Shown here: positions 3,697-32,926 of the stretch, piece by piece
Position numbering within the stretch: position 1 is the first letter of the stretch
Layout: every line of letters begins with the position of its first letter
Source of the DNA: an uncultured Verrucomicrobiota bacterium
GTDB taxonomy: Bacteria; Verrucomicrobiota; Verrucomicrobiia; CAIQCK01
DNA: 64,000 nucleotides
Assembly (NCBI GenBank): GCA_964524715.1
Contig: CAZGGF010000002.1
Span: forward strand, 11,630 to 75,629
Reading direction: 5' to 3'
Position numbers and translations under genes: made by a program
Notes under the pieces: generated by a model
What the model was told of the DNA's origin: nothing
The model's database searches: none
Seen by the model: only the letters and a program-made list of their open reading frames with translations

Positions 3697-5910
3697 ATGA
3701 AACACAATATTGTCCCCCTACTCTGCACATTCCTGATCTTCACCGCCTCCATGTCGAGCGCCGCGCCCCACTGGAAGATCGTTCTTCCAGACTCCCCGAC
3801 GGCAGTGGAGAACACCGCCGGCAAGGAACTCCAGTCGCATTTGCGGCAGGTGACGAACGATGATTTCCCCATCGTCTCGGAAAAGGACGTCACTAGGAAT
3901 GCCAAGTCTCTGATTCTTGTCGGCAAGACGTCGCAATCACCGCAAAGAGATTTCGCGTTCGATGAGATCCTGATCCAGTCGAAAGATGGGAACCTGATCC
4001 TCACCGGGCATCCCCGGCGCGGCGCGCTCTATGCCGTGTACTCCTTCCTTCAGGATGTCGTCGGCGTGCGATGGTGGACACCGGAGGAAACGTTCATCCC
4101 GAAGAAGGAATCACTCAAGATTCCGGACGATTTGAACATTTCCTACGCGCCAAAGATGATCTCCCGTGAAATGTATCATCGTTGGGTGCAATCCGGCGTT
4201 TTCTCGGCGCGAATGAAGGGAAACGGCAACATCCCTGCGGAATACGGCGGCAAAGTGAGCATCATCCACTTCGTGCACTCGTTCTACAAAATCATCCCGC
4301 CGGAAAAATATTTCGACAAACATCCCGAGTGGTTCAGTGAAATCAAGGGGAAGCGGACGAGCGATCACGCCCAGCTCTGTTTGACGAATGACGAACTGTG
4401 CAAGGAAGTGACGAGCAACGTGCTCGCGACATTACGCAAGAATCCCGATGCGCGCTTCATCGACATCAGCCAGAACGACTGGCGCAAAAACTGTACCTGC
4501 GAGAAGTGCAAGGCATTGGACGAAAAGGAAGGCTCCCCCGCCGGCTCACTCGTGCATTTTCTGAACAAAGTCGCGGCAGAGGTGGAGAAGGAATTCCCGG
4601 ACGTGCTGGTCGAATCGCTCGCGTATCAGTACACGCGGAAACCGCCAAAATTCGTGAAGCCGCGGGACAACGTGCTCATCCGCCTCTGCACGATTGAATG
4701 CTCTTATATCCAGCCTCTCACAGGTGAACAGAACAAGAAGTTCGCCGAGGACATGGAAGGATGGAGCAAGATCGCGAAGCATCTGTTCATCTGGGATTAC
4801 GTCACGAACTACACCGACTACATCGGCCCCCATCCGAACCTTCGAGTGCTTGCGCCCAACGTGCGCTACTTCGTCAAGAATGGCGCGGTGGGGCTGTTTG
4901 AGGAGGGCGAAGGAGACGACTTTGCCGACATGCGAAACTGGGTGTTGATGCGGCTGATGTGGGACCCATCGCTCGATGAAAACAAACTGTTTTACGATTT
5001 CTGTGAGGGATACTACGGGAAGGAAATTGCCCCGTTCATTCACGAGTACTGGGACGTGCTGATCAACCAGGCGGAGAAGACCAAAATATACCTGGGATGT
5101 TTCAGGATGACGTCCGAGCAATGGATTGATCTCGAAACGCTCAGCCGCGTCACGGGCATCATGAACAATGCCGTCCAGAAATCGCGCGAGGTCTATGGCG
5201 ACCGTTCCGCCGAGTTGCGACGCCTGCGCAAGGCGAAAATGGCGATCGATCATGTCTGGCTTTCGCGTTACTACCCGCTGCGATGCGAATCGCGCGAGAA
5301 ACACGTTCCCTTCCTTGGCCCGAAAGACCCGTTGAAAGCCGTGACGGAATTTGTCGAGCTATGCCACAGCAACAAAACAAAATCGCACAACATCTCGGAC
5401 AAGACCGCGAAGGAGTTTGAGACGTATTTGAGCAATCTGTCGAAGATGTTCACGTCGCGGAAGTATCCGCCTGAAATGTGCAAGGACATTCCCGAAGACA
5501 CATGGATTGTTTTCGACGACGCGTTATTCAGCAACTACAAGGATGCCGCAACACGCGTCGAAGACGCCAACGCCTCGGATGGATGGACGACGCGAATGAC
5601 GACGAAAGTTGACTGGAACACCGGATACAGACCGGCCGTCACGGGCAAATTCCATGTTTACGCCAGCATGCGATGCGACGCGACCATCGACACGGGCAAA
5701 GCCGGTTCGCTCGGCGTGTACAATTTCAAGAACAAGCGCGGGCTCGTCAGCAAACCGCTCAAAGTCGAGAATCTCAAGGGAGACAAGTATCGCTGGATTG
5801 ACCTCGGCGTCGTTGATTTCTCTGCGGGCGCGGGAATCTGGTTCGCACACGGACACGTTCCCGAAGTGCAGGCGCTGTATGTCGACCGCGTGGTGCTAAT
5901 CGCGAAGTAG
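3697..5910 (+). CDS. Secreted DUF4838-family protein (glycoside-hydrolase-like)
   Basis: 737 aa with signal peptide. CTCEKCKALDEKEG…SLAYQYT and IWDYVTNYTDYIGPHPN resemble DUF4838 proteins of polysaccharide-utilisation loci. Confidence 0.55.
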   Translation: MKHNIVPLLCTFLIFTASMSSAAPHWKIVLPDSPTAVENTAGKELQSHLRQVTNDDFPIVSEKDVTRNAKSLILVGKTSQSPQRDFAFDEILIQSKDGNLILTGHPRRGALYAVYSFLQDVVGVRWWTPEETFIPKKESLKIPDDLNISYAPKMISREMYHRWVQSGVFSARMKGNGNIPAEYGGKVSIIHFVHSFYKIIPPEKYFDKHPEWFSEIKGKRTSDHAQLCLTNDELCKEVTSNVLATLRKNPDARFIDISQNDWRKNCTCEKCKALDEKEGSPAGSLVHFLNKVAAEVEKEFPDVLVESLAYQYTRKPPKFVKPRDNVLIRLCTIECSYIQPLTGEQNKKFAEDMEGWSKIAKHLFIWDYVTNYTDYIGPHPNLRVLAPNVRYFVKNGAVGLFEEGEGDDFADMRNWVLMRLMWDPSLDENKLFYDFCEGYYGKEIAPFIHEYWDVLINQAEKTKIYLGCFRMTSEQWIDLETLSRVTGIMNNAVQKSREVYGDRSAELRRLRKAKMAIDHVWLSRYYPLRCESREKHVPFLGPKDPLKAVTEFVELCHSNKTKSHNISDKTAKEFETYLSNLSKMFTSRKYPPEMCKDIPEDTWIVFDDALFSNYKDAATRVEDANASDGWTTRMTTKVDWNTGYRPAVTGKFHVYASMRCDATIDTGKAGSLGVYNFKNKRGLVSKPLKVENLKGDKYRWIDLGVVDFSAGAGIWFAHGHVPEVQALYVDRVVLIAK

Positions 5911-15240: not shown

Positions 15241-16086
15241 CTAGTGCTGGGAGCTTCGTCGAGGGAGAAGAGGTGAAGGAGTTCCTTTCGGTGACGCCAT
15301 GAGCGCTGCGAACCATTTCGCAGCCATCCTTTCCATGCCCACCTGGTTGGGGTGAACGCCATCAGGCAGGAGATCATCGGTCGTGATTGCAGCATGCATG
15401 TCCACGAGTGTGATGCGCTTGCCTGCGGCCTGCTGCGCGGCGACAATCGGGGGCAACGAGGCGTTGTAGGCATCCACCTTCTCCCAACCTGCGCGGGGTG
15501 CTTTCTGCGGGAGGATGGTGGCGACAAAAAGATGAGCGCCGCTTGTTTCGCCGATGGTGCGGATGAGCTTGTCGCGTGCCGGCGCATCGAAACCGTTCGC
15601 TCCGGACATAAGCAGAATCACGTCCGGCTGGTATTTCTTCAACACGTCAACGATGCCGGCAACCTTGATTTCTTTGATGCCTCGTGCCGCGAGCACATCG
15701 GTCGGTGTGGGCACGACTCCGCCCGTGAGGATGCGGGCGTTGCTAAAGCCCGCGAGTCCGTGGTGATCGGGGTCGAACATCGGATCAACAACTCCGTCAC
15801 GGCCAAAGGCGGCGTAGTTGAGTTCACCGACGAAATCATAGGCGACGCCCGCGGCGCGGAGTTTGTCCTGGAGTGCTTTCCGCCAACCACCGCCCTGCGG
15901 ATTCGGCAAGCCAGTGGCTTTGCCGTTTGCCTGCGCGAGGTAAGAGCCTCGCGTGATGCTGTCGCCGAGGGGTAAGATACGCAGGAGCTTTTCAGGCGGC
16001 ACGGCGACGCTCTTCGGCTCGGCTCCCTGCAACACGGCCAGCGGAACCAGCAGCAATGTAATGAGGAGGATGAGGGTGGGGTTCAT
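15241..16086 (-). CDS. Secreted SGNH/GDSL-family hydrolase
   Basis: Signal peptide MNPTLILLITLLLVPLAVLQG. Block I is LRILPLGDSITRG and block V is DGVHPNQVG. Confidence 0.7.
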   Translation of the reverse strand: MNPTLILLITLLLVPLAVLQGAEPKSVAVPPEKLLRILPLGDSITRGSYLAQANGKATGLPNPQGGGWRKALQDKLRAAGVAYDFVGELNYAAFGRDGVVDPMFDPDHHGLAGFSNARILTGGVVPTPTDVLAARGIKEIKVAGIVDVLKKYQPDVILLMSGANGFDAPARDKLIRTIGETSGAHLFVATILPQKAPRAGWEKVDAYNASLPPIVAAQQAAGKRITLVDMHAAITTDDLLPDGVHPNQVGMERMAAKWFAALMASPKGTPSPLLPRRSSQH

Positions 16087-16103
16087 GCCGGTGTCTGGAA
16101 GGG

Positions 16104-16784
16104 TTAGTGAGCAGTTGGGATGACGTGGACATCGTCTATTTCGATGCCCTTGGCACCTCCGTTCTGCATCCAGAGCAATTTGCGTTTGATTGCGTCGAAG
16201 TTGGGACGCTTCAGGGTACGAGACCAAATCCTGCCAGCGACGGACATCACCACCGACTCGCCCGAGAAAACGAGCTTCACCTCGCGCCAGATGTTGGCGG
16301 AGAGGTCAACTTTCTCGGCTGGGAAGTGCTCGTTGGTGCGGAAGGCTCCGCTGACCGGGTCGGCTTCGCGGGTGTTCTGGCGCTGGGGGTGCTTCGGATC
16401 CTTGGTGTGGGCGTCAACTTCCAGAACGATGGAGTCACGCAGGATTTTCACGCGGAGCATGTGATCGACACTGCCGTAACCGTCGTCCCCGTCCACGAAG
16501 AGCCAGAGCATGCCGTCGGAACTCAGGTGGCGATAGCGAAAGGAGATGGTCAAATCCTTGCCGTCCAGTGCGAGGTAGACCATCGGCGGGTATTTGCCGC
16601 CACTGCTGCCGTGGGTCCACATCACTCCGTCACGGATCTGCGTGTTTTTGTTGGGCAATGGCGTCAGGAAGCGCTTCGCGTCGAAGTCCGTGCCGAACGT
16701 CTCATGAACCGAAAACGTTTCCGAGGGCACAGCGGATCCGGCCAGCAGCATGACGATGAACATCAGTAACACATTTCGTTTCAT
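16104..16784 (-). CDS. Secreted hypothetical protein (weak DUF1080/concanavalin-like resemblance)
   Basis: Signal peptide MKRNVLLMFIVMLLAGSAVP. Beta-rich sequence. No firm motif. Confidence 0.4.
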   Translation of the reverse strand: MKRNVLLMFIVMLLAGSAVPSETFSVHETFGTDFDAKRFLTPLPNKNTQIRDGVMWTHGSSGGKYPPMVYLALDGKDLTISFRYRHLSSDGMLWLFVDGDDGYGSVDHMLRVKILRDSIVLEVDAHTKDPKHPQRQNTREADPVSGAFRTNEHFPAEKVDLSANIWREVKLVFSGESVVMSVAGRIWSRTLKRPNFDAIKRKLLWMQNGGAKGIEIDDVHVIPTAH

Positions 16785-17071
16785 GGTCGCCCCTTGGGCC
16801 AACGCATTGCGAGTTTCGAACCAGAATAATAAGGCCGATGGGCTGCAAATCCAGCTCGCAATGAAAGTGTTGTGGAAGGAATCGATGATTTGAACGGCAT
16901 TGACCGGGATATTGGAAAGAAGACCCACCTCCAAGTGTTGATGCAAGGTGCCGCGAATAAATAAAATGGTGGAGGCGGTGGGAATTGAATCCGTTCTTTT
17001 GGGCCGAATTTACGGGAATTGCGGGGTTTTTGAACAGTCGAAAAATCCAAAAAACGTAGGTTGGACCCTTC

Positions 17072-17126
17072 TTTTGTCACGTTTTGTCACGGCCTCGTGG
17101 AGGTGGGTATATGACCCACCCCCACG
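17072..17126. promoter_or_regulatory. att-like site: tandem TTTTGTCACG x2 direct repeat plus 13-bp palindrome
   Basis: TTTTGTCACG occurs twice at 17072-17091. It is followed by CGTGGAGGTGGGT-ATAT-GACCCACCCCCACG. The site lies immediately 3' of the excisionase-type gene. Confidence 0.4.
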
Positions 17127-17139
17127 TGACCGGATCGGA

Positions 17140-17439
17140 TCAGGGACGATCCAGTTTTGACAACGCAATCAGTCTAGGCTTCGGCCCTTGGTTCTCCGTT
17201 TGCAAACGGAGCACGTCGGTTTCCTTGAATCTAACCGCACCGCCTATTCGCACGATGGGAAGTTCCCCCGACTGGGCGAGCCTCTCAACCTTGCTAATGC
17301 TGATGCTCAAACGACTAGCTACTTCTGCCTTGCTCATCAACTGCGGCACCATGTTCGCCGGTGCCGCGTCTTCCATCTCCACCACTACATACTCAGCCTC
17401 GTGCCGAACTCGGCACGATTTACAGGTGACCGTCATCAT
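17140..17439 (-). CDS. Excisionase/AlpA-type helix-turn-helix (HTH_17) DNA-binding protein
   Basis: …LMSKAEVASRLSISISKVERLAQSGELPIVRIGGAVRFKETDV… is a typical Xis/AlpA HTH. The true start is probably internal (MVPQLMSK…). Confidence 0.6.
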   Translation of the reverse strand: MMTVTCKSCRVRHEAEYVVVEMEDAAPANMVPQLMSKAEVASRLSISISKVERLAQSGELPIVRIGGAVRFKETDVLRLQTENQGPKPRLIALSKLDRP

Positions 17440-19216: not shown

Positions 19217-20092
19217 GTGAAAAACGGAAACAATAGAAAGTTGGGCAGCGAACATGGTTCGACCGCCGCGCAAGCCGCGGTTTCCAATGCCGCGGAATCG
19301 CGCGAAACGAGCAACGCGACTAGCGCCGCTGTGGAGGCGGAACAACGTGCATCGACAACGTCGAATCAACCAGCAACTGCCCCTGCCACAGGAGGCGGTG
19401 GCGACATCATTGTCGCACACCCAGACCTGAGCGCCAAGGAACGGAAGACGGAGTTGAAGCGGTGCGAGAAGATCATCGCCGGTGGCTTCCAAGGCGCGTG
19501 GGAAGCGGGAAAGGCGTTGATTGCTATCAGGGATGGGAAGCTCTACTTGGGGTCTCACGACACGTTCGAGGACTACCTGCGCGACCGGTGGGGCATGGGG
19601 CGATCCCATGGTTACCGGTTAATTGCAGCCAGCGAGGTTGCGGACATCCTGTCTCCAACTGGAGACAGGGCGCAGCTTCCTGCTCATGAGAGCGTGCTTC
19701 GACCATTGGTTGGCTTGAAGGCCGAGGACGCACAGGCAGCCTGGAAATCTGCTGTCGCCAAGGCGGGAGACGGTCGTCCGGTTACCGCAAAGCTCGTGAA
19801 AGCGGCGGCGGCTGAATTCACGCCGATCAAGCCGAAGAAAACTACGACTCCTGCGGCTCAGCCCAACGGCGCGGAAAAGGCCAACGCGGAAAAACCCCAT
19901 CCGGAGGATGGAGAAGAGGAGGAACAGGAAAACGACAAGCCTTTGGATGTCGTTGAGTTGAAAAAGGCTCTTGGGCTGGTCAATGACATTGATCGACAGG
20001 TTCATGAAGGGGTGAACCGTAATACGATCCGGAATCTCGTGAACCAACTGCGACAGATCCTCATGGATCTGGCGGAGGACGCGCAGGGCTAA
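19217..20092 (+). CDS. DNA-binding protein with phage/plasmid-type (ParB/KorB-like) HTH
   Basis: …GSHDTFEDYLRDRWGMGRSHGYRLIAASEVADIL… is a motif common to plasmid/phage partition and replication-associated proteins. Low-complexity S/T/A-rich N-terminus. Confidence 0.5.
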   Translation: MKNGNNRKLGSEHGSTAAQAAVSNAAESRETSNATSAAVEAEQRASTTSNQPATAPATGGGGDIIVAHPDLSAKERKTELKRCEKIIAGGFQGAWEAGKALIAIRDGKLYLGSHDTFEDYLRDRWGMGRSHGYRLIAASEVADILSPTGDRAQLPAHESVLRPLVGLKAEDAQAAWKSAVAKAGDGRPVTAKLVKAAAAEFTPIKPKKTTTPAAQPNGAEKANAEKPHPEDGEEEEQENDKPLDVVELKKALGLVNDIDRQVHEGVNRNTIRNLVNQLRQILMDLAEDAQG

Positions 20093-20243: not shown

Positions 20244-21224
20244 ATGAGCAAGAGCAAGATCAAGCGCAAGAAGCAAAATATAAATCAGGTCGACCAAGTC
20301 GCCCAAGCCAAGACCCTGGCGGAAGGCATCGTCGGAACCGTGCACTGGACCACAGACACTTTGGGCCATTGCACCTGCCCCGACGAACACTTACACAAGG
20401 CAAAGAGCGCCAGCCAGGATTGCAGCATCAAACTGGACGGCATGCCCAAGATCTCGTGCTTCCATCAGGACTGCAGGGACCCGGTTGCCGATACCACCGA
20501 ACAACTCCGGACCGCCTTGAAAGACGCTGGGATTCGTTTCGACGCGCAGGATTACAAGAAGAGCAAGGACGACAAGGCGCGGATCGAGGCCATTCGCAAG
20601 ATGGAGCGTCTCCACAAACGGACCGTGGCGCTGCAAGGTCGCGTCTTCAAGATCCACCGTTGGCCCTACGCCGATATTATAAAGGCGGCGCCAGTTCCGG
20701 CGAACGGCAAGCCCTCTGAGCACTGGAAGCTGCTGCTTAAGCTATTCAAGCCTGGCGACATCGTCTGGATTGGCGAGAAGGATGACAGCGGAAAAGCGCA
20801 ACACGCGAAGCACTTCAAGAGGGCCCAGGATTGGCTGAACGAGAAGAAGCCCTTCGGCCCCTTCATCTGCCCGTCTGCATTCAAGCCCGGCAGTGTATCG
20901 CGCTGCAATGACTGTGTGTCTGTCCGCCGGTTCCTCGTGGTGGGGGCGGACACAATCGATCGTGACCAGCTCGGTGCAGTCTTCCGATGGCTCCGGGACA
21001 AGGTAAAGTTGCCGCTTCACGCGATTGTGGAGGCGGCAGACAAGTCGATGCAAGGCTGGTTCGAATTCCCTGGGGCCGCTCATGCCGACGAACTGCGGAC
21101 GATCCTGCCTGCGCTGGGCTGCCAGGTTGATTTCTTCCGTCCGAGTCAGCCGTGCAATCTGCCAGGCTTCCCGGATGCAGAGGGAAGGCCAACGCGATTG
21201 GTTTACCTCGGGGAGATGAAATAA
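20244..21224 (+). CDS. Zinc-finger protein, putative primase (AEP/prim-pol-like)
   Basis: HCTCPDEHLHK…DCSIKLDG…ISCFHQDC is a metal-binding cluster. LVVGADTIDRD is a possible hhhDxD catalytic motif. It sits immediately upstream of the P-loop helicase gene. Confidence 0.4.
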   Translation: MSKSKIKRKKQNINQVDQVAQAKTLAEGIVGTVHWTTDTLGHCTCPDEHLHKAKSASQDCSIKLDGMPKISCFHQDCRDPVADTTEQLRTALKDAGIRFDAQDYKKSKDDKARIEAIRKMERLHKRTVALQGRVFKIHRWPYADIIKAAPVPANGKPSEHWKLLLKLFKPGDIVWIGEKDDSGKAQHAKHFKRAQDWLNEKKPFGPFICPSAFKPGSVSRCNDCVSVRRFLVVGADTIDRDQLGAVFRWLRDKVKLPLHAIVEAADKSMQGWFEFPGAAHADELRTILPALGCQVDFFRPSQPCNLPGFPDAEGRPTRLVYLGEMK

Positions 21225-22543
21225 TGAACAGGCCAAGCACAGTGTTGCCTCTGCCGGAGGTTTACTACGATCACCAGCGGAAGCAGTTCTACGTCCAAGA
21301 CAAACAGGGGGACTGGATCATCTTCAGCCAGTGTGATGTCGAACGCTACTTGAGGGACATCGGCTATTCCATCAAGAGGTCTGGTTCCGAGAACTCCGAG
21401 GTGCACGACTGCATTCTCAACATCCAGCGTGAACAGAACATCGCCTACGCTGGATCGCTGGCGGGGTATTCGAAGGGCTGCTATGAAATCCAAGGCAACC
21501 GCATCCTCGTCACCACCTCGCCCAAGTTGATCGTGCCACAGCCGGGTGATTGCCCCCTCCTGCGCAGGTTGTTTGATGGACTGTTAATTGATGGAGCGAC
21601 GGACCAGCGGCCCTACGTGTTTGGCTGGCTGAAGGTCGCCGTTGATTCTCTCTACTCGGGTGAACTGCGTCCTGGACAGGCGTTGGTATTGGCCGGCGTA
21701 AGGGACTGCGGCAAATCGCTGCTCCAGAACCTCATCACCATCATGCTGGGGGGCCGCTCAGCCAAGCCCTACCAGTTCATGACGGACAGGACCGCCTTCA
21801 ACGCAGACCTGTTCGAGGCGGAGCACCTGATGATTGAGGATGAGCCAGCCTCCAAGGACATCCGCGCCAGGCGCGCCTTCGGCAATACGATCAAGCAGAT
21901 CACGGCGGCCGACGTGCAGCGCTGCCATGCGAAGAACCGCCAGGCGCTCTCGTTGACCCCGTTCTGGCGGATTACGGTGTCAGTCAACAGCGAGCCAGAG
22001 AACCTCATGGTGCTGCCTCCCTTGGACGAAAGCATCGAGGACAAGCTGATTATCATCAAGGCAATGAAAGTACCGATGCCGATGCCCACGACAACGCCAG
22101 CCCAGAGAAAGGAATTCTGGAACAGGCTCATCCAGGAACTGCCCGCCTTTGTCCATCATTTGCAGACGATGGAGATACCTGAAACACTGAGGCACGGCCG
22201 GTTTGGCGTCATTCACTTCCACCACCCCGAACTCGTTGCAGCCATCAACAGTGAGTCGCCCGAAGAGATCCTTTTGGCGCTGATTGACGCCAGATGCTTC
22301 GATGAAGGCGATGCTGTATGGACAGGCACGGCGGAAGTCTTGACGGCCCGCCTGACCGACCAAAGCGCCAAGTCATCCCGTACGGCGAACCAACTGCTGT
22401 CCCACCCGTCAACGTGCGGCCACTATTTGGGCCGCTTGCGCACTCGTTACCCTCACAGGTTCTCTCAAGGCAGGGATCGCAATGCCCGGGTCTGGACCAT
22501 TCACGCTCCAGATCATCTGCAGCCCCGGGAAGGGCAGGGGTGA
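21224..22543 (+). CDS. Phage/plasmid primase-helicase P-loop NTPase (D5_N/DUF5906/VirE-like)
   Basis: Walker A is ALVLAGVRDCGKSLLQNLITIMLGG. Walker B-like is HLMIEDEP. The architecture matches primase C-terminal NTPases of satellites and phage-plasmids. Confidence 0.6.
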   Translation: MNRPSTVLPLPEVYYDHQRKQFYVQDKQGDWIIFSQCDVERYLRDIGYSIKRSGSENSEVHDCILNIQREQNIAYAGSLAGYSKGCYEIQGNRILVTTSPKLIVPQPGDCPLLRRLFDGLLIDGATDQRPYVFGWLKVAVDSLYSGELRPGQALVLAGVRDCGKSLLQNLITIMLGGRSAKPYQFMTDRTAFNADLFEAEHLMIEDEPASKDIRARRAFGNTIKQITAADVQRCHAKNRQALSLTPFWRITVSVNSEPENLMVLPPLDESIEDKLIIIKAMKVPMPMPTTTPAQRKEFWNRLIQELPAFVHHLQTMEIPETLRHGRFGVIHFHHPELVAAINSESPEEILLALIDARCFDEGDAVWTGTAEVLTARLTDQSAKSSRTANQLLSHPSTCGHYLGRLRTRYPHRFSQGRDRNARVWTIHAPDHLQPREGQG

Positions 22544-22559
22544 CACCGTCACAGTAGAT

Positions 22560-22925
22560 CGCACGCTCCCATTGGTTGACACGACTCTGCCAGACTGCCA
22601 GATACTTTATACCCTCTATTCATTCATTTAATAACAACCCAACTACGTAATAATACCTATAGCTAATAACTACCTATGTAAGACGTGTAGAATAGTCTGG
22701 CAGTCTGGCAGTGGGTTGTTGACATGCGCTGTGGGTACCTGGGTCACATATCTTATTCCGGGTCTTTACTAAGTATGGCGCTTATAGTTAGGCCGTCCAT
22801 TTGCCAACGTAGTACGTTGTGCTATATTAATACTCTATAGAGACTAGAGACTCTCTATAAGTGCAGTGAAGAGTCAGAGTAGATAGTCTCTTGACAGGTC
22901 GAGAGACCTGTGGTAAGTTGCAGTA
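22560..22925. promoter_or_regulatory. AT-rich ori-like/regulatory region with iterons, inverted repeats and an operator-overlapped promoter
   Basis: 15-bp inverted repeats CTGCCAGACTGCCAG (22587) and CTGGCAGTCTGGCAG (22697) flank an AT-rich stretch of about 90 bp. Each repeat contains a CTGCCAGA x2 iteron. TATAGAGAC-TAGAGAC-TCTCTATA lies at 22833-22860. TTGACA(22891)-17nt-TAAGTT carries the CAGGTC-GAGA-GACCTG palindrome in its spacer. Confidence 0.45.
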
Positions 22926-23012
22926 CGACTTAAAGCAGGACCGCTTACTTGTCCCGCCTAGATTGATGCTTCGGATGTTTCGAGCATCCCAACTTCAGAT
23001 ACCCCGTGCCGT

Positions 23013-23801
23013 ATGTATTTATTACGGCGCGCTCTTGCACATGGACAGCAAGCGCCGCGTGCAAGCGATTCGAAGACTGCACAGCGTAATATGAACAACG
23101 TAACGAATAGTAATAACGGCGTCGGCAAAGCCCAGACCACGGTGGAGACAGGCGCAGCCACCAACAATGATACATTGGCAAAGACCGATGCTCCCAAGAC
23201 AAGCATCGGAGATAAGAAGCCAGCGACCCCCAAGGGCAAATCCAAGAAACGCGCCAAGGCTAACCGCGCACCCATCATGGTGGACCAAGAAACAGCCGAC
23301 AGGATGGCAATCGCAAGCGTATACGATGCTCTGTTGGGGCACGCCCCAGGTAACAGCGCTGGCGACAATGCAGGAGCAGCATTTGATTCAGTGACACTGA
23401 TGGCACTGGAAATGGAAGCACGCAGGGAGGGAGGTGAAGCGTGGAAGGCAGATGAATGGGTGTCAATTGGGGACGGGTATATCCGCATGGACATGTATGA
23501 GGAGGCTCTTCACGCCTATCAACGCGCTTACGAAATAGCCCCGGAACAGATCTATACTCAGATGCAACTTGCTGCCGCCTACCTCGAGTTGGAAAGAGCA
23601 GACGAGGCTTACCCGTTGCTGATGGATGTAACAGAAGAGGAAGTTGAACAAGTGGGCTTCAAGTATTGGGTCACTCTAGCCAGGTGCTATTATCTCCTAG
23701 GTCGGCACGAAGATGTCAGAACCGCAGTAAAGAAAGCCTTGGAATATGAAGATGAACACCCCGAATGCAGGACACTACTTAAATTAGCGGGGCTCCTGTA
23801 A
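23013..23801 (+). CDS. TPR-repeat protein with low-complexity basic N-terminus
   Basis: C-terminal TPR-like helices (…YEEALHAYQRAYEIAPEQIYTQMQLAAAYLELERADEAY…). Lower GC than the flanks. The start may be the internal ATG at 23093. Confidence 0.45.
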   Translation: MYLLRRALAHGQQAPRASDSKTAQRNMNNVTNSNNGVGKAQTTVETGAATNNDTLAKTDAPKTSIGDKKPATPKGKSKKRAKANRAPIMVDQETADRMAIASVYDALLGHAPGNSAGDNAGAAFDSVTLMALEMEARREGGEAWKADEWVSIGDGYIRMDMYEEALHAYQRAYEIAPEQIYTQMQLAAAYLELERADEAYPLLMDVTEEEVEQVGFKYWVTLARCYYLLGRHEDVRTAVKKALEYEDEHPECRTLLKLAGLL

Positions 23802-26845: not shown

Positions 26846-26913
26846 CCGTCGATGTGGGCCTGAACTGAGTTCGGACGGATTGTGGGATCTGTGGCGTCCG
26901 TCTCGTTGAAATA
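26846..26913 (+). repeat. ~70-nt structured repeat, copy A
   Basis: GTCGATGTGG…CTGAACTGAGTTCGGACGGATTGTGGGATCTGTGGCGTCCGTCTCGTTGAAAT. It shares TGAG-TTCGGACGGAT-N-TGGCGTCCG-N-GTTGAAA with the copies at 30046 and 51149. Confidence 0.55.
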
Positions 26914-27305
26914 TTGGTGACCGGGTGCTTTCTGTTTGATTGCCGATGCTATCTTCAGCGATTTTGATATGCTATGCAACCTCTGGAAGCTCGACTATTC
27001 TGAATGCCCAAGCAGCCGTTCGTGGTTTGGCTGAGTATCTGACACATGAAAGGCCAAATACGATGCAATGTCGAAAGGTTGGCACTTCCCGGAAGCGACC
27101 CTGTGGTGGGACATCTTTCCGAAGCGAGCTAAGAACGTGGTCTCCATGCGCAAACACAAAGTCGCAGCCTGATTCTCTGGCTGTCGAAACTCCCGCGTAA
27201 GCCAGCTTACGAAAGTTGAGGCGGAGCGGTTTTGGGCACGGCGACCGGCTTCGGGTTTACAAGTTACCCGTTAGTCGATAATCCGGACCTGTTGTTTCGC
27301 TAAGC

Positions 27306-27712: not shown

Positions 27713-29245
27713 TCAGCGCTTCTTCGCCGGGGACGACACCTTATCCAGCTCTTTCAAGATGGCGACCGTCGCTTCAACCAGCTCGACACCGCCCTCGGGA
27801 CCCACCACGCAGCTCTGCGGAATGGCACCGTAGCCCTTGTTCTTCACCGCCCGTTCGGTGGGCAGATAGGTGGGGGTGGTCGTGCTGCTGGTGAGCTGGA
27901 CCACGAAAGTCTGGACAAAGGGACTGCGCCCCTGAATCCGTTTGCCGTAATCGACCGGGAACTCGAAGGGGTTGCTGGCAAAGGCGATGTCACCCAACCG
28001 CACCACATGGAACTCGATCTCCTGACGCGGCTGCGTCAAATTGCGTTCATAGGTCTCCAGCACCCGGTTGGAACGTCCTTTGCCGGAGTCGACATTATCC
28101 TTCCACTTTTTGAGTTCTTTCGGAGTGAGTCCGGCGGCGGGCTGCATTGTTTCCAGCACGGCGAGGTCGCGTCTGGCCTGGGCGCAATCCTCCTCGGAAA
28201 TCTTGAACTTCGAGAGTCCGATCGTTTTGGTGACGTGACAAATTGGAAGAGTGTCGAAACGCTCTTTCCCCGCCCACGACAGTGTGCGGTCAAGCGCGGC
28301 CACAACGCGTTCGCTGATCTCAATGCGGTCGAACTCTTCGCGGTACGCCGGCATTCTGCCGTAGCGCAGACGCCAGCGGCGATCCTGGGCACGGTCGTAA
28401 TTCATGTGCCGGTAGCGCGGCGCAAGATCCCCGGCGGCGGAGCACTGCGAGAGCACAAAGACGTCGCCGTAGTTCTTTCTGATCATATCGCGCAGCGGCG
28501 CGCAGAAGTCGGCGGACTGATGGTAGTTGCTGTTGAGATTCTCGGCCGGCGACGGCACATTGACGATCATACCGGTGAGTTTGTCGCTCATGTCGTAGGT
28601 GAAGAGGAACTGCACGAAGGGGTCGGCTATCGCTTCGACGTGGCTGAATTTGTCGTCGTTGTGGCTGCCGTACATCTTGCAGTGACCATTGCACTGGATA
28701 CCGGGAATCCCGGCCATGTCCGGACGCTTCGAGACATCATCAAGGTAGACGGTGCGCCGGTTGAAAGCGCTGGTGGCGAAATCGTAGCCGTAGGCCACTT
28801 TGCCCGGAGCGCGCTTCTTCCACGCCTCGACGATGGCGGCGGCGGCCTGGTCGACGAAGAACTTGTGGTACTTCAGCGACAATTGGTCGCGCCAGTAGAA
28901 GCCTGCATTGGAGTGGCTGTGGGTGGCCGAGAAGAAGATTTTCTCAAGCGGAATGTTGGGATCAAGTTTTTCCACCTCCCGACGGACCTCTGCGTTGAGG
29001 GAAGGCAGCACAAAGATGATGTCGGCCGAGAGGAAGATCACGCAGTCCTTGCCGCCGTCGATGACAAGACTCGTGACCGAGAGTTTGTCCAGCGGCCCCT
29101 GGGAGATGCGCTCGTACATCATGCCCGACAATTTGATCGGGTCGTTGGTGGTGATGTCGCGCGTGGCCCAGCCGATGTTGAGCGCTTCGGCCTCAAGCCC
29201 GCCAGCCAGCAATGCCGCCGACAAGAGTAAAAGTGCTTTTTTCAT
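27713..29245 (-). CDS. Secreted neutral/alkaline ceramidase-like hydrolase (N-terminal domain family)
   Basis: Signal peptide MKKALLLLSAALLAGGLEA. …IGWATRDITTNDPIKLSGMMYER… and SATHSHSNAGFYW resemble the ceramidase_alk N-terminal domain. 510 aa, shorter than canonical enzymes. Confidence 0.45.
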   Translation of the reverse strand: MKKALLLLSAALLAGGLEAEALNIGWATRDITTNDPIKLSGMMYERISQGPLDKLSVTSLVIDGGKDCVIFLSADIIFVLPSLNAEVRREVEKLDPNIPLEKIFFSATHSHSNAGFYWRDQLSLKYHKFFVDQAAAAIVEAWKKRAPGKVAYGYDFATSAFNRRTVYLDDVSKRPDMAGIPGIQCNGHCKMYGSHNDDKFSHVEAIADPFVQFLFTYDMSDKLTGMIVNVPSPAENLNSNYHQSADFCAPLRDMIRKNYGDVFVLSQCSAAGDLAPRYRHMNYDRAQDRRWRLRYGRMPAYREEFDRIEISERVVAALDRTLSWAGKERFDTLPICHVTKTIGLSKFKISEEDCAQARRDLAVLETMQPAAGLTPKELKKWKDNVDSGKGRSNRVLETYERNLTQPRQEIEFHVVRLGDIAFASNPFEFPVDYGKRIQGRSPFVQTFVVQLTSSTTTPTYLPTERAVKNKGYGAIPQSCVVGPEGGVELVEATVAILKELDKVSSPAKKR

Positions 29246-30045: not shown

Positions 30046-30123
30046 GCTGTCGATCTGGTTGACGTGAGCAAAAACTGAGGTTCGGACGGATTGAGGCGTC
30101 TTTGGCGTCCGCCAGGTTGAAAC
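30046..30123 (+). repeat. ~70-nt structured repeat, copy B (leader of the ATPase cassette)
   Basis: TGTCGATCTGGTTGACGTGAGCAAAAACTGAGGTTCGGACGGATTGAGGCGTCTTTGGCGTCCGCCAGGTTGAAAC. Confidence 0.55.
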
Positions 30124-30281
30124 AGGAGAGACCGACGGTTTCACTTCATTGCAGTTCGGACGAGTATTCCGCCAGCTTGAAGCGCGCCGTAAGAAAATCC
30201 TTGCTGGCGTTTTCCCTCGGAGCGACACTCGGCGCACAACACAGAGCAGACGATGATGGCGGCAACGTGAATGCAAAGCAA

Positions 30282-30476
30282 ATGATCCCGACGCCCCAGA
30301 TTGCGAAAGCGCCAGATGTTCCGGCACAAGTTTTCGAGCAATTTCTTGCAGAGCTTGCGGGTGCTGGCGTCCCAGAAGAAGTGGTAATGCGATTGCGCAA
30401 GACTCTCGTGGAAGATCGGGCGTTCGGCGAGATGGCCCTGAAAAAGGCCGTTCTCGGAGAGGAAGCGGCTTCGTGA
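30282..30476 (+). CDS. Small protein translationally coupled to the SMC-like ATPase
   Basis: MIPTPQIAKAPDVPAQVFEQFLAELAGAGVPEEVVMRLRKTLVEDRAFGEMALKKAVLGEEAAS. Its stop TGA overlaps the GTG start of the next gene (GTGA). The open frame extends upstream to a TTG at 30102 inside the repeat, so the start is uncertain. Confidence 0.35.
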   Translation: MIPTPQIAKAPDVPAQVFEQFLAELAGAGVPEEVVMRLRKTLVEDRAFGEMALKKAVLGEEAAS

Positions 30477-32926
30477 TTCGGGTTGATTCCATCACGATCA
30501 AGGAGTTCCGTGGCATCCGTGAACTCACGCTTGATTTCAGAGGTAAGAATTATGCTATCTGTGGCCCCAACGGCACCGGCAAGAGCGGCGTCGTTGATGC
30601 GCTGGAATTTGTTCTAACGGGTAATGTTTCACGCCTCTCAGGCGAGGGAAAAGGCGAGATTTCCCTAAAGCAGCATGGTCCACACGTGGATTTAAGAAAC
30701 AACCCCGATAAAGCGCGAGTACTGGTGACACTCACCATAACCAACCTTGGCAAGAGCGTTACGATAGAGCGAAGCGTGAAGAATCCTGGAAGGCCGCTGG
30801 TTACACCGAACGAACCGGCTGTTCTCGAAGTGCTCCGACAGGTTAGTGAACATCCTGAAATCGTTCTCTCGCGACGCGAACTCATTCGGTATGTGCTGGC
30901 TACGCCAGGCGACCGAGCTCATGAAGTTCAAGCTCTGCTTCATCTGGACCGCATTGAGCAAGTGCGGCAGGGCTTGCAGAAAATCGCCAACAGCGCAGAA
31001 AAGCAATTGCCGTTGCTTGCAAGCACGGTCGAGACAGCCGCAGAAAACCTTTTGCGTGTGTTAGCGATTGCGGAAATGTCTGTCGGAAAAGTGTTGGAGG
31101 CAGCCAATGCCCAGCGCGCGGTCCTTGGTCTTCCGGCACTGACAGAACTCACTGCTGCCGCGTCTCTCAAGGATGGTATGGTGGCGCCGCCACCTGCGAA
31201 GCCTCAACCTGTTCCGAAAGCTCAAGCTCTGGCTGACATTAAGGCAACCCGTGATGCACTCGACAAAACTGGTGGAATCACGATTGCCACTCTGACTTCG
31301 GAGCTAGCCGCCGAAGTTGCTGCACTCGCTGCAGATCCGGCAAGCGCCGCAGCTATCACGACAGAGAGTTTTTACACGACCGGCATCGCCCTTCTCAACG
31401 CAGAAGCATGCCCATTTTGCGATACTGCTTGGGACTTGAATACGCTTCGCGCTCACGTGCAGACGAAGATTGATCGACTCGAAGGGTTTTCACGCAAACG
31501 CAATGCCATTGAAACGAAGATTGTGCCACTGACCGCAGCTCTGGGTAGGGCGCAGGCCGCCATTGAAACCCTGATTCGTTATGGGACGCTTGCGAATCCA
31601 CCCGTGGTGATGCAAGTAGCAAAAGATTACGCCAAAAGCTGCCGCCTTAAAAACGGACAGCTCACCGCACTGCTGCCTTTGGCCGATACAGTCAAGACGC
31701 TGAACAATCTGCCGGTGGTGCCACAGGGAGTGTGCGACGCGATTGCCGATCTGGAAAAAGTGGTGCTCGCTTTGCCCGAACCGAGCAAACAGGATGGTGC
31801 CCGGGAGTTTCTCGCGGTTGCGCAAGAACGCCTTGAAGTATGGCGTGATGCCAAGAGGAAGCAGAAGACGGCTATCGAGCAGGCCCAGCGATGCCGGCAG
31901 GTATCCGACATCTATGCCGCCACCAGTGACAAGCTACTCGTCGGGCTATATGCGGAGGTTGAAAAGCATTTCGCCGCTCTTTACAGCTCCATCAATCGGA
32001 CCGACGAAAACGCGTTCAGGGCCAAACTCGTTCCTTCAATCGGCAAGCTCGGCTTCGATGTGGATTTCTACGGTCGTGGCTTTTTCCCGCCGGGTGCCTA
32101 CCACAGCGAAGGTCATCAGGACGGCATGGGACTTTGTTTGTATCTTGCGCTCATGCGCCATCTGCAAGGTGATGATTTCACTTTTGCCGTGCTCGATGAC
32201 GTGCTGATGTCAGTTGATATCGGACACCGGCGCGAAGTCTGCGCCTTGCTCAAGAAGGAATTTCCGAAAACGCAGTTCATTGTCACGACACACGATCCGG
32301 TTTGGCTGCGCCACATGAAGACCGTGGGCTTGATTGGCGCGAAGAATGGCGTGCAGTTCAGGACTTGGAGCGTGGATGCTGGACCTGCCCAATGGCTTGA
32401 TCGTGACGTATGGACGGAGGTTGATGAGCATCTGCAGAAGAACGACGTGCGTGCTGCCGCCGGCCTTCTGCGGAACTATCTAGAATACGTCGCCACAGAG
32501 CTGTGTCATCGCCTGCGTGCTCCGGTTGAGTTTCGTTCCGACGGTCAATATCAGCTCGGGGACCTGCTACCCGCAGTCGTCGCGCACCTACGCAGACTCT
32601 ACAAGAGTGCAAAGGAAATCGCCAATTCATGGAATCAGAGGGAGATCGTGTCCGCCCTTGCCGCTCGTGAAACCGACTTTGGCAGGTTCGCACAGACATC
32701 GCAGGTCGAGCAGTGGCAGGTGAATACCGCGATCCATTTCAACGCATGGGATAATTTGACCAAGGAGGATTTTGCTCCCGTGGTGACGGCCTATCGCGAA
32801 CTTCTCGCCGGATTTACTTGCCCAGACTGTCACGAAATCCTTCACGTGTCCCCTGATCGCGGCGCTTCCGAATCACTACGCTGTGAATGCGGCAAGACCA
32901 ATATCAATCTGCGCAAGAAAACCTAA
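30473..32926 (+). CDS. Rad50/SbcC-like ABC ATPase with CxxC zinc hook and C-terminal zinc-ribbon domain
   Basis: Walker A is ICGPNGTGKSGVVDALEF. A long coiled-coil region has EACPFCDTAWDL at about residue 330. The ABC signature is YHSEGHQDGMGLCLYLAL, Walker B is FAVLDDVLMSVD and the H-loop is TTHDPVWL. The extra C-terminal domain of about 220 aa ends CPDCHEILHV…CECGKT. Confidence 0.75.
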   Translation: MIRVDSITIKEFRGIRELTLDFRGKNYAICGPNGTGKSGVVDALEFVLTGNVSRLSGEGKGEISLKQHGPHVDLRNNPDKARVLVTLTITNLGKSVTIERSVKNPGRPLVTPNEPAVLEVLRQVSEHPEIVLSRRELIRYVLATPGDRAHEVQALLHLDRIEQVRQGLQKIANSAEKQLPLLASTVETAAENLLRVLAIAEMSVGKVLEAANAQRAVLGLPALTELTAAASLKDGMVAPPPAKPQPVPKAQALADIKATRDALDKTGGITIATLTSELAAEVAALAADPASAAAITTESFYTTGIALLNAEACPFCDTAWDLNTLRAHVQTKIDRLEGFSRKRNAIETKIVPLTAALGRAQAAIETLIRYGTLANPPVVMQVAKDYAKSCRLKNGQLTALLPLADTVKTLNNLPVVPQGVCDAIADLEKVVLALPEPSKQDGAREFLAVAQERLEVWRDAKRKQKTAIEQAQRCRQVSDIYAATSDKLLVGLYAEVEKHFAALYSSINRTDENAFRAKLVPSIGKLGFDVDFYGRGFFPPGAYHSEGHQDGMGLCLYLALMRHLQGDDFTFAVLDDVLMSVDIGHRREVCALLKKEFPKTQFIVTTHDPVWLRHMKTVGLIGAKNGVQFRTWSVDAGPAQWLDRDVWTEVDEHLQKNDVRAAAGLLRNYLEYVATELCHRLRAPVEFRSDGQYQLGDLLPAVVAHLRRLYKSAKEIANSWNQREIVSALAARETDFGRFAQTSQVEQWQVNTAIHFNAWDNLTKEDFAPVVTAYRELLAGFTCPDCHEILHVSPDRGASESLRCECGKTNINLRKKT

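Follow-up and report, generated by a model that had tools for sequence, protein, structure and literature searches.

A probable mobile-element replication origin with inverted iteron pairs directly 3' of a D5-like helicase gene

A segment of the 64-kb stretch of DNA analysed here (the window) is probably the replication origin of a mobile element. It sits directly 3' of a replicative helicase gene and is built from two inverted pairs of short repeats (Table 1). We consider it likely that 22587-22711 is the origin of an integrated replicon comprising a primase-like gene, a D5-like SF3 helicase gene and the origin itself; the element probably belongs to Verrucomicrobiota. The closest model is the Rep-ori design of the SaPI/PICI satellites (SaPIbov1, SaPI1, SaPI5), not P4 or a phage-plasmid. 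The SaPI-type reading follows from the anatomy of the segment and from the coupling between helicase tail and iterons, both of which match the SaPI Rep/ori design. This is a known origin design, met here in a little-studied bacterial group.

Table 1 Positions in the 64-kb window of the proposed origin and of neighbouring features
Feature	Position	Strand	Remarks
AlpA/excisionase-like HTH_17 gene	17140..17439	-	Pfam PF12728, E 6e-10
Primase-like gene, 326 aa	20244..21224	+	Zinc-binding N-terminus and AEP-like fold (predicted)
D5-like SF3 replicative helicase gene, putative initiator, 439 aa	21224..22543	+	Pfam DUF5906
Left arm	22587..22602	+	Two tandem 8-bp iterons, CTGCCAGA CTGCCAGA
AT-rich spacer, putative DNA-unwinding element	22603..22695		70% A+T
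Right arm	22696..22711	-	Two tandem 8-bp iterons, inverted; + strand reads TCTGGCAGTCTGGCAG
Best sigma-70-like match of the intergenic region	22801..22828	+	TTGCCA-16-TATATT with TG extension; 10/12 positions
AGAGAC-repeat/palindrome cluster with TTGACA-17-TAAGTT	22836..22919	+	Absent as a conserved feature in L001/L002

The two arms, CTGCCAGACTGCCAGA and TCTGGCAGTCTGGCAG, form a perfect inverted repeat. The original prediction gave its length as 15 bp; the repeat is present where predicted and its true length is 16 nt. Two further parts of that description hold as they stood, since each arm is a direct repeat of two 8-bp units and the AT-rich DNA between them, put at about 90 bp, measures 93 nt. 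The first iteron starts 44 nt past the helicase stop. The exact 8-mer CTGCCAGA has four copies on both strands of the 64 kb, all four in this segment, and the iteron cluster occurs only once in the window. The AT-richest 80 nt of the entire window coincide with the start of the spacer (from 22602; 72% A+T against a window mean of 44.6%). Inverted repeats with a score of at least 16 and a spacer of 30-260 nt were found in 9 of 1237 control windows of 450 nt drawn from related loci. There is no local GC-skew signal, and none would be expected for such a small element. No DnaA box was found within several kb of the segment, and an Rfam scan of 14-30 kb (E up to 1) gave no match at the segment.

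The gene upstream had been described as a primase-helicase. The helicase is indeed directly upstream, unfused, and a separate primase-like gene precedes it. The helicase has more than 1100 homologues, although the window's own copy is not recorded as a called gene, and it matches PHROG families annotated as 'DNA primase'. Its AlphaFold2 model (pLDDT 83) ends in helices followed by a predicted beta-hairpin, and the protein is predicted to adopt a D5-like SF3 fold with a C-terminal winged-helix domain at about residues 335-430, the wing spanning about 413-427. Foldseek comparison of this model identified the NrS-1 helicase (E 2e-15), poxvirus D5/E5 and, at about 1e-6, SaPI5 PriRep (7ola) and PriRep1 (7pds). 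In a PDB profile search the NrS-1 helicase was the sole match, with no sequence-level match to SaPI Rep. The Walker A, Walker B and sensor residues fall in invariant alignment columns. The window helicase has four unique deviations, inside the family range of 0-4, and keeps all catalytic motifs.

The primase-like gene is translationally coupled to the helicase gene, and the two genes occur together in the two closest relatives, L001 and L002, whose helicases are 66-68% identical to that of the window. The primase-like protein has 23 homologues. Searches with it gave no match in Pfam and nothing meaningful among PDB sequences; its AlphaFold2 model (pLDDT 87) gave weak Foldseek matches to the LigD polymerase domain and human Pri1 (E 0.03-0.1). 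The motifs VVESD, DTAGKSLHGWF and QCD are kept by 21 relatives; the window copy has not kept them, and three predicted catalytic residues are replaced in it (E234G, H270Q, D294Q). This copy carries 16 unique deviations at otherwise invariant columns. Of the 21 relatives, 20 have 0-3 such deviations and the most divergent one (P0142) has 11. Its reading frame is still full length.

The layout recurs after the helicase gene in relatives, as two to four short repeats with an 8-9 bp period, an AT-rich centre and then the inverted repeats. It starts 3-200 nt past the helicase stop, the spacers are roughly 40-110 nt long with an A+T content 15-30 points above that of the locus, and the iterons are found almost only at this site. 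The sequence of the repeats is lineage-specific. Inverted repeats with a score of at least 13 lie within 450 nt of the stop at 16 of 61 chromosomal loci and in 20 of 1237 control windows (about 1.6%). A stricter requirement, two tandem repeats plus two inverted tandem repeats, was satisfied by 11 of the 61 loci according to the automatic count, which is one too low (12 loci are listed), and by 3 of 1122 controls. Between about two thirds and three quarters of the family lack a clear inverted repeat in the 450 nt that follow the stop; the layout is thus not universal, or the repeats are too degenerate or lie elsewhere.

In L001 and L002, CTGCCAGG/GTGCCAGG occurs twice and is repeated in inverse form beyond about 80 nt of 71-73% A+T, the array lying about 150 nt past the stop. 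They keep the iteron core CTGCCAG, and the rest of their intergenic DNA cannot be aligned. Two further CTGCCAG copies of the window, at 21119 and 21159 near the primase/helicase junction, were taken as chance, since they lie within coding sequence, differ at the eighth base and have no equivalent in L001 or L002. Phage contigs from IMG/VR of the same host group carry the same helicase/origin family; in the phage-like contigs each arm has three iterons with a 9-bp period, the spacer is 46-60 nt long at about 77% A+T, and the array starts 18-20 nt past the stop. A metagenome scan for the iteron-arm pattern gave three informative contigs (L121-L123), a plain tandem repeat (L120) and a case with a GC-rich spacer (L124). 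None of these short contigs encodes the helicase, so the scan neither confirms nor breaks the link with it. A point against the origin reading is L123, which has the same iteron arms around an AT-rich centre on 5.6 kb without such a helicase; its arms adjoin a serine resolvase gene.

Evidence that the helicase reads the repeats comes from four phage-like contigs (L078, L080, L085, L082). Their helicases are 97-99% identical over residues 1-396, and 13 of the 22 variable columns fall within the last 26 residues (hypergeometric P = 2e-12), which correspond to the predicted winged-helix wing. In the same four contigs all six iterons switch jointly (AAGTGCCC, AAGGGCCC, CAGCACCC) between conserved flanks and around a conserved AT spacer. 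Since iterons and tail residues switch together in such near-identical contigs, it is most likely that the helicase tail recognises the iterons. The switching is seen in these four contigs; the pairing in the window itself is one of concordance with L001 and L002 only, the three having in common the tail motif RF(S/T)QGR(D/E)xNARxWTI and the iteron core CTGCCAG.

We propose that the helicase encoded upstream would bind the four iterons through its C-terminal winged-helix domain, in the manner of SaPI Rep. The AT-rich centre would then melt and two self-loaded hexamers would move apart, again as for SaPI Rep. Priming could be carried out by the AEP-like primase of the element or, in the window, by another primase. 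For the window we infer binding, melting, double-hexamer loading and replication by analogy with the SaPI system. Autonomous firing may have been lost in the local copy, because predicted catalytic residues are missing from its primase-like gene and the searches detected no integrase.

The analogy can be set out in detail. SaPI origins lie immediately 3' of rep, have a central AT-rich region with at least two oppositely pointing iterons on each side, and are bound by the C-terminal winged helix of Rep (PMC9371898). The proposed origin of the window likewise immediately follows the gene of the helicase and putative initiator, and it too has an AT-rich centre with at least two short iterons per side in opposite orientation. 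The SaPI/PICI initiator is a self-loading D5-like SF3 helicase whose C-terminal winged helix specifies the origin, and the window helicase has a matching predicted fold. In SaPI/PICI elements the primase gene is just upstream or fused (PMC9371898); in the window it is upstream and separate. The C-terminus of the SaPI/PICI initiator and the iterons form a cognate pair, for which co-variation in the present family is seen in the four phage-like contigs described above. The systems also differ. SaPI iterons are 5-6 nt long and number 6-12 in total, whereas here the period is 8-9 bp with 2-4 units per side. SaPI Rep has no detectable sequence similarity to the window helicase. The window primase is AEP-like, with a predicted zinc-binding N-terminus, and the host is probably a member of Verrucomicrobiota.

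The original prediction had likened the placement to P4-like satellites and phage-plasmids. Its core idea, repeats in inverted arms and an AT-rich segment directly after the helicase gene, is well supported by the comparative data; the P4/phage-plasmid model, the promoter and a ParB label are the parts that did not stand. P4 alpha does combine primase function, an SF3 helicase and a C-terminal winged-helix origin-binding domain, as predicted here, and in both P4 alpha and pRN1 ORF904 the winged helix is C-terminal to the SF3 helicase (PMC2777425). In P4, however, the primase is DnaG-like and fused, whereas the window has a separate AEP-like gene; against the P4-family primase C-terminal model TIGR01613 the helicase scores 24.6 bits, far under the cut-off of 108.7. 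The P4 origin has octameric type-I iterons, TGTTCACC, and consists of two separated cis regions, ori and crr. The only copy of TGTTCACC in the 64 kb, at 4723, is unrelated; none lies near the origin segment, and no P4 capsid-size or cos functions were found. Against a phage-plasmid, a PHROGs scan of ten reading frames (nine in 17.6-26.9 kb plus 15241-16227 upstream) detected no phage structural or packaging proteins, and the window contains chromosomal-type genes (tRNA-Pro, squalene-hopene cyclase and others).

Other replicons that use winged-helix initiators or SF3 helicases share only part of this anatomy. In the core origins of SV40 and papillomaviruses the SF3 helicases (large T antigen and E1) bind short elements set in inverted pairs, so that two hexamers assemble head to head beside an AT-rich, easily melted region. 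There the origin-binding domain is N-terminal, the repeats are central and the AT tract lateral; the window combines a predicted C-terminal winged helix with a central AT tract. Classical iteron plasmids (RepA/TrfA/Pi) have 17-22-bp direct repeats on one side of the DNA-unwinding element together with DnaA boxes, and their Rep, which is not a helicase, recruits the host DnaB. Short repeats bound by a winged-helix domain beside an AT-rich unwinding element resemble the origin proposed for the window; in contrast, the latter has 8-bp inverted pairs, no nearby DnaA boxes and an initiator that would be the helicase itself. The archaeal plasmid pRN1 encodes an AEP-type prim/pol, an SF3 helicase and a C-terminal winged helix, as predicted here, but fused into one protein (ORF904), and it has no recognisable iterons (PMC2777425). 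The region 3' of its rep gene is essential (PMC2777425; PMC4234260 abstract). PICMI and Gram-negative PICI have int, alpA and a DUF5906 or DUF3987 'primase'. An alpA-type HTH_17 gene and a DUF5906 protein occur together in a small island there, as they do in the window, and HTH_17 (PF12728) is the family by which AlpA is defined in PICMI satellites (PMC10803314); no integrase or Fis gene was found in the window island.

The local element looks decayed. The alpA-like gene, about 3.8 kb 5' of the primase-like gene and about 5.1 kb from the origin, gives a mobile-element context. Integrases are present in the relatives L002 and L016. Here, neither Pfam on the reading frames of 150 aa or more in 14-37 kb nor a tblastn search with the enzyme of L002 detected one. 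Direct repeats of the att type between the left side of the island and 22.5-34.5 kb do not exceed 12 nt. SaPI/PICI/PICMI satellites are characterised by an integrase, a master regulator, helper-induced excision and genes for packaging or capsid hijacking; in the island neither an integrase nor an Stl-type repressor nor packaging genes were detected. A 291-aa protein had been labelled ParB-like; it gave no sequence match in Pfam, NCBIfam, PHROG or PDB, which leaves the label unconfirmed. Elsewhere in 14-30 kb the Rfam scan gave tRNA-Pro, an sRNA match at chance level (E 0.7) and, at 17095-17123, a weak match to tmRNA (E 0.03). The last is simply a hairpin after the alpA-like gene, and no tmRNA or tRNA was called there.

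With neither integrase nor att repeats found, the local element is perhaps a relic, and the segment could be an origin by descent that is now inert DNA in a decaying island. The 16 unique changes in the primase-like gene, three of them at predicted catalytic residues, would fit such decay. The four iterons are nevertheless perfect, as is the inverted repeat over all 16 nt, the helicase deviates no more than its family does and keeps its catalytic motifs, and the primase-like frame is full length; we regard full inactivity as unlikely. A degraded island might also have kept its helicase-iteron pair through co-option, either as an anti-phage module for replication interference or decoy, or as a satellite that uses the primase of a helper phage, which we hold to be decidedly unlikely. 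In a decoy module the resident helicase would occupy the origin of an incoming phage, or the resident origin would titrate the phage helicase.

The inverted iterons could instead be operator or roadblock sites for transcription, at which a protein of the element loops or occludes the AT-rich DNA. The binding protein could be the HTH protein at 19217-20092 or the helicase itself, whose tail would serve as an autoregulator. Such binding would control a promoter inside the spacer or the read-through by which transcription of the replication operon reaches the cargo genes. Regulated promoters too have AT-rich DNA between palindromic sites, a TTGACA hexamer closely flanks each arm on its outer side (22576-22581 and 22719-22724), the downstream cargo genes share the strand, and the coupling of tail and iterons demonstrates a cognate protein-site pair, not replication. 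Yet the promoter scan called no site within the arms or spanning them, and the layout invariably goes with the 3' end of the helicase gene whatever follows it: in L001 there are 1.5 kb without called genes and then host genes on the opposite strand, and in L016 an opposite-strand host amidohydrolase. The design also equals that of experimentally defined SaPI origins (PMC9371898). The original prediction had itself allowed that the repeats might simply be operators of a downstream promoter; this is improbable, because relatives retain them regardless of the downstream genes, even before opposite-strand host genes. A site of recombination, packaging or transposition (att/dif-like, pac/cos, or the ends of a miniature inverted-repeat element) is suggested by perfect, terminal-looking inverted repeats around an AT-rich core, which resemble MITE ends or recombinase sites, and by the arms beside the resolvase gene in L123. 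The window holds only one copy, however. Its place with respect to the helicase gene is the same in diverged lineages although the arm sequences are particular to each lineage, which is not the behaviour of a mobile MITE. The att site of an integrated element is split rather than intact in mid-element, and arms made of tandem 8-9-bp units co-vary with the helicase tail. We consider such a site highly improbable.

As a probable replication origin of the SaPI type, the segment has wider relevance. The comparative evidence defines a cis-acting origin and a probable specificity determinant for a large helicase family. Members of this family occur on small integrative elements and in phages of Verrucomicrobiota and related PVC bacteria, for which very few genetic tools exist. 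The primase-helicase-origin cassette of an intact relative (about 2.5 kb) is a candidate minimal vector replicon for PVC bacteria. The natural specificity switches of L078, L080, L082 and L085 would supply ready-made orthogonal initiator/origin pairs and a simple system for the reading of an 8-9-bp iteron by the wing of a winged helix. For annotation, inverted iterons that flank an AT-rich core after the stop of a DUF5906 helicase gene would be a usable signature of such replicons.

Downstream of the right arm, conservation in L001 and L002 does not extend past about 30 nt, and the cluster of repeats and palindromes at 22836-22919 is outside the conserved origin as judged from sequence. AGAGAC copies upstream of other island genes (19162, 20206, 24727) were without common context. 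The elements described earlier for this region, namely the TAGAGAC palindrome, TTGACA-17-TAAGTT and CAGGTC-N4-GACCTG, are all in place, but the operator-overlapped sigma-70 promoter read from them is weak. TTGACA (22891-22896) and TAAGTT (22914-22919) are separated by 17 nt, TAAGTT matches TATAAT at 3 of 6 positions, and the combination was not called by a consensus promoter scan. The palindrome in the spacer, CAGGTC-GAGA-GACCTG at 22895-22910, is short and unconserved in relatives; by our own arithmetic, palindromes with 6-nt arms and a fixed loop arise by chance at about 0.25 per kb. Promoter-like matches are no commoner in the sequence than in shuffles, and the best sigma-70-like site of the intergenic region is a lead only, as one match equals the shuffle expectation of 1.0. 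That site sits just 5' of TATAGAGA-N8-TCTCTATA (22836-22859), a perfect 8-nt palindrome that encloses two TAGAGAC. Four copies of AGAGAC fall in 22839-22907, against 21 in the whole window, and the cluster may be the operator or leader of the cargo genes that follow.

Every sequence feature named in the original prediction was found in its place in the window. The inverted repeat past the helicase gene is present, but it is perfect over 16 nt and not 15 as claimed. Counted over both strands, the 64-kb window has four exact copies of the 8-bp unit CTGCCAGA, all of them within the arms, which lie 93 nt apart. The spacer is 70% A+T, and the AT-richest 80 nt of the window start at 22602 (72% A+T vs a window mean of 44.6%). 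An equally strong inverted repeat with a 30-260-nt spacer was found in 9 of 1237 control windows (450 nt, from related loci). The end of the primase-like gene, just ahead of the helicase start, has two more CTGCCAG heptamers spaced by 40 nt; the equivalent positions in the two closest relatives do not carry them and they were set aside as probably chance.

Positions of the features in the window and, where named, in other contigs
Feature	Position (strand)	Sequence or content
Hairpin directly after alpA-like gene	17060-17140 (-)	GGTCACGTGGGGGTGGGT-CATAT-ACCCACCTCCACG..CGTGAC
Primase-like gene	20244-21224 (+)	326 aa
CTGCCAG heptamers	21119-21125, 21159-21165 (+)	
Helicase gene	21224-22543 (+)	439 aa
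Left arm	22587-22602	CTGCCAGACTGCCAGA; two head-to-tail 8-bp units
Right arm	22696-22711	TCTGGCAGTCTGGCAG; two head-to-tail 8-bp units, inverted
Promoter-like site	22801-22828	TTGCCA-16-TATATT
Folded region, untranslated	22830-23095 (+)	
Perfect palindrome	22836-22859	TATAGAGA-N8-TCTCTATA; TAGAGAC x2 inside
AGAGAC cluster	22839-22907	4 copies in 69 nt
Originally predicted promoter	22891; 22914	TTGACA-17-TAAGTT; CAGGTC-GAGA-GACCTG in spacer
55-nt direct repeat	26869-26923, 30080-30134	78% identical; internal CGGACG...CGTCCG hairpin
Ceramidase-like gene	27713-29245 (-)	
SMC/RecF-like AAA ATPase gene	30473-32926 (+)	817 aa
Switched iterons, phage-like contig L078	4011-4118	IMG/VR
Switched iterons, phage-like contig L080	7287-7398	IMG/VR
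Switched iterons, phage-like contig L085	1783-1894	IMG/VR
Switched iterons, phage-like contig L082	7288-7399	IMG/VR
Arms in metagenomic contig L123 (Ga0315284_10052186)	2500-2623	CTGCCAGA x2 arms

An identical database protein confirms the start of the helicase gene. Its product matches Pfam DUF5906 and PHROG families labelled DNA primase; a P4-family primase C-terminal model also matches, with a score far under its cut-off. In a structure search the model of the protein (25 homologues used, mean pLDDT 83) resembles the NrS-1 phage helicase (E 2e-15), with further matches to poxvirus D5/E5, SCCmec Cch and, at about 1e-6, the primase-helicases of SaPI5 and SaPI1 (7ola, 7pds). On these structural matches the protein is classed as a D5-like SF3 helicase. 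Its C-terminal ~100 residues are predicted to form several helices followed by a beta-hairpin, the shape of a winged helix.

The nearest relatives of the helicase come from Verrucomicrobiota metagenome-assembled genomes, so the element's host probably belongs to this phylum. The two closest (L001 and L002, helicases 66-68% identical) have no genes in common with the window other than the helicase and the primase-like gene. Both carry TCTGCCAGGGTGCCAGG about 150 nt past the helicase stop, then about 80 nt at 71-73% A+T, then CCTGGCACCCTGGCAGA, and when the three intergenic sequences are aligned, conservation is essentially confined to the arms with a few bases on their flanks. What follows downstream differs: in L001 a stretch of about 1.5 kb has no called genes and is followed by response-regulator genes on the opposite strand, and in L002 there is an unrelated ORF. 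Loci encoding family members were collected from 63 chromosomal sequences (61 usable) and 54 phage-like contigs. In the 450 nt past the helicase stop, 16 of 61 chromosomal loci scored 13 or more for an inverted repeat, compared with 20 of 1237 control windows. The strict pattern, a tandem pair of 6-mers and then a tandem pair of inverted copies, was counted in 11/61 loci, one too few as 12 are listed, and in 3/1122 controls. The layout is constant across lineages although the units differ (GTGACACC, GTGAGACC, ATGACGCC, TGAGAGGG, TGACAGGG, AAGTGCCC, CAGCACCC). The unit begins 3-200 nt past the stop, its iterons mostly have a period of 8-9 bp with 2-4 copies per arm in most loci, and the spacers of relatives span roughly 40-110 nt with an A+T content 15-30 points above the locus. 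The iteron words of relatives are nearly restricted to this site. Family members occur in small islands with an integrase (for example L002 and a further chromosomal locus, L016) and in phage replication modules such as that of L082, which encodes a PD-(D/E)XK nuclease, a family A polymerase and a dNMP kinase.

A link between protein and site comes from four near-identical phage-like contigs whose helicases share 97-99% identity across residues 1-396. The last 26 residues hold 13 of the 22 variable columns (hypergeometric P = 2e-12; four contigs); the L080 and L082 proteins differ at 18 residues, 12 of them within 397-422. In the alignment, the variable tail positions coincide with the wing predicted for the window helicase. 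Downstream of the helicase, the flanks and AT-rich centre are conserved in all four contigs and the six iterons of the two arms all change in concert (L080, AAGTGCCC; part of L078, AAGGGCCC; L082, CAGCACCC). The window and its two closest relatives have in common both the tail motif RF(S/T)QGR(D/E)xNARxWTI and the iteron core CTGCCAG. Judged from their sequences, the four contigs are a natural switch of initiator/origin specificity. This is strong evidence that the iterons are the cognate partner of the helicase C-terminal domain, which does not of itself prove replication.

In SaPI origins, iterons lie immediately 3' of rep around an AT-rich centre, with at least two on each side in opposite directions, and are read by the winged helix of the Rep C-terminal domain; origin binding and melting are ATP-independent (PMC9371898). 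P4 alpha and pRN1 ORF904 have the order primase, SF3 helicase, winged helix (PMC2777425), and in pRN1 the sequence lying 3' of the replication gene is essential (PMC2777425; PMC4234260). The unit in the window and family reproduces the published anatomy and coupling of SaPI origins, and on the strength of this likeness we propose that 22587-22711 is a replication origin of the SaPI type. The helicase would bind the arms, the inverted iteron pairs would position two helicase assemblies for loading as a double hexamer, and the 93-nt centre would melt before priming and replication. The original prediction of an ori-like AT-rich region with repeats beside the helicase gains support from the anatomy, the family-wide conservation and the protein-site co-variation, all of which are observed. 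The locus should not be classed as a P4-like satellite or a phage-plasmid: searches gave no P4 iterons, no DnaG-type primase fused to the helicase and, among ten ORFs compared with PHROG, no phage structural genes. Membership of the SaPI, PICI or PICMI islands was likewise rejected after a search for integrase and packaging genes yielded none. By its predicted function the locus is a SaPI-type Rep-ori replicon, all replicon-level defining features testable in silico being present. The origin design itself is known and would not surprise a specialist; here it is found in a phylum that has been little studied, with a helicase family that has diverged, an AEP-like primase encoded separately and iterons that repeat every 8-9 bp. 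The family-wide origin signature and natural specificity switches are useful, and the module is a possible vector backbone for Verrucomicrobiota.

A purely operator role for the arms and AT-rich centre is unlikely, because the unit is kept regardless of downstream content and no promoter-like site lies across it. Nor does a recombination, packaging or MITE site fit: the unit is single-copy and tied to the 3' end of the helicase gene, and its lineage-specific tandem units co-vary with the helicase tail. That the unit is a relic would be compatible with the origin reading. One observation stands apart: in L123 (5.6 kb) the same arms belong to a longer inverted repeat, of 32 nt, with an AT-rich centre, and adjoin RHH, HTH and serine-resolvase genes; the contig has neither the D5-like helicase nor the primase-like gene.

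The state of the local copy bears on whether such an origin would fire today. The primase-like gene overlaps the helicase start, and its product has no family match in Pfam, PHROG, NCBIfam or a sequence search of the PDB. The structure model (pLDDT 87) weakly matches archaeo-eukaryotic primases, namely human Pri1 and the LigD polymerase domain (E 0.03). Three motifs kept in its relatives, VVESD, DTAGKSLHGWF and QCD, look like AEP motifs I-III. The window protein has 16 unique deviations at columns otherwise invariant among the 21 relatives compared, 20 of which have 0-3 and the most divergent (P0142) 11. These include E234G, H270Q and D294Q, across the three AEP-like motifs. The reading frame is full length and the adjacent helicase well conserved, and the primase-like protein is probably catalytically dead. 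The helicase looks intact, with four unique deviations (family range 0-4), all catalytic motifs present and four perfect iterons beside it. An integrase was found neither by Pfam on the neighbouring ORFs nor by tblastn with that of L002. The primase-like deviations and the missing integrase suggest that the element is decaying or depends on another primase, and for the same reasons an origin by design and descent appears more secure than one firing at present.

Comparison of the left side of the island with 22.5-34.5 kb gave no flanking direct repeats longer than 12 nt. Chromosomal-type genes in the window include tRNA-Pro and squalene-hopene cyclase. Upstream of the primase-like gene are two proteins of unknown family (291 and 405 aa), and on this side the opposite strand encodes an AlpA/excisionase-type HTH_17 protein. 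The long imperfect hairpin after the latter gene has a weak tmRNA match (E 0.03), and after it comes a direct repeat, GTGACAAAAC GTGACAAAAG. In other members of the helicase family, words of the GTGACA type are the iterons.

The predicted sigma-70-like promoter with an operator palindrome fared less well. Its hexamers and palindrome are present, but a consensus scan made no call because the -10 matches at only 3/6 positions, and the 6-bp palindrome is too short for significance (about 0.25 per kb expected with a fixed loop, by our arithmetic). TTGCCA-16-TATATT is a better promoter-like site, one match being the expectation from shuffles. Just 3' of it, AGAGAC forms direct and inverted repeats around the longer palindrome, with 21 copies in the whole 64-kb window. 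The cluster is real and, calculated from these counts over all hexamers and positions, of borderline significance; it may be an operator array for the cargo genes, the same-strand ORFs downstream (one TPR protein and several ORFs without matches). The RNA before the TPR gene is predicted to fold into several discrete hairpins (-90.9 kcal/mol, z = -4.06 vs shuffles), has no Rfam family match and may be a structured leader or small RNA. This promoter/AGAGAC region has no conservation in the three-way alignment with L001 or L002. It is separate from the origin, and a role as structured leader or operator region for the cargo genes may be taken as a lead only.

Further downstream, the 55-nt repeat pair brackets a region with the ceramidase-like gene. 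The N-terminus of the 817-aa ATPase resembles PtuA-type anti-phage ATPases (NCBIfam NF041760, E 5e-11, far under cut-off), and the gene, at a distance of 8 kb from the replication module, may serve in defence.
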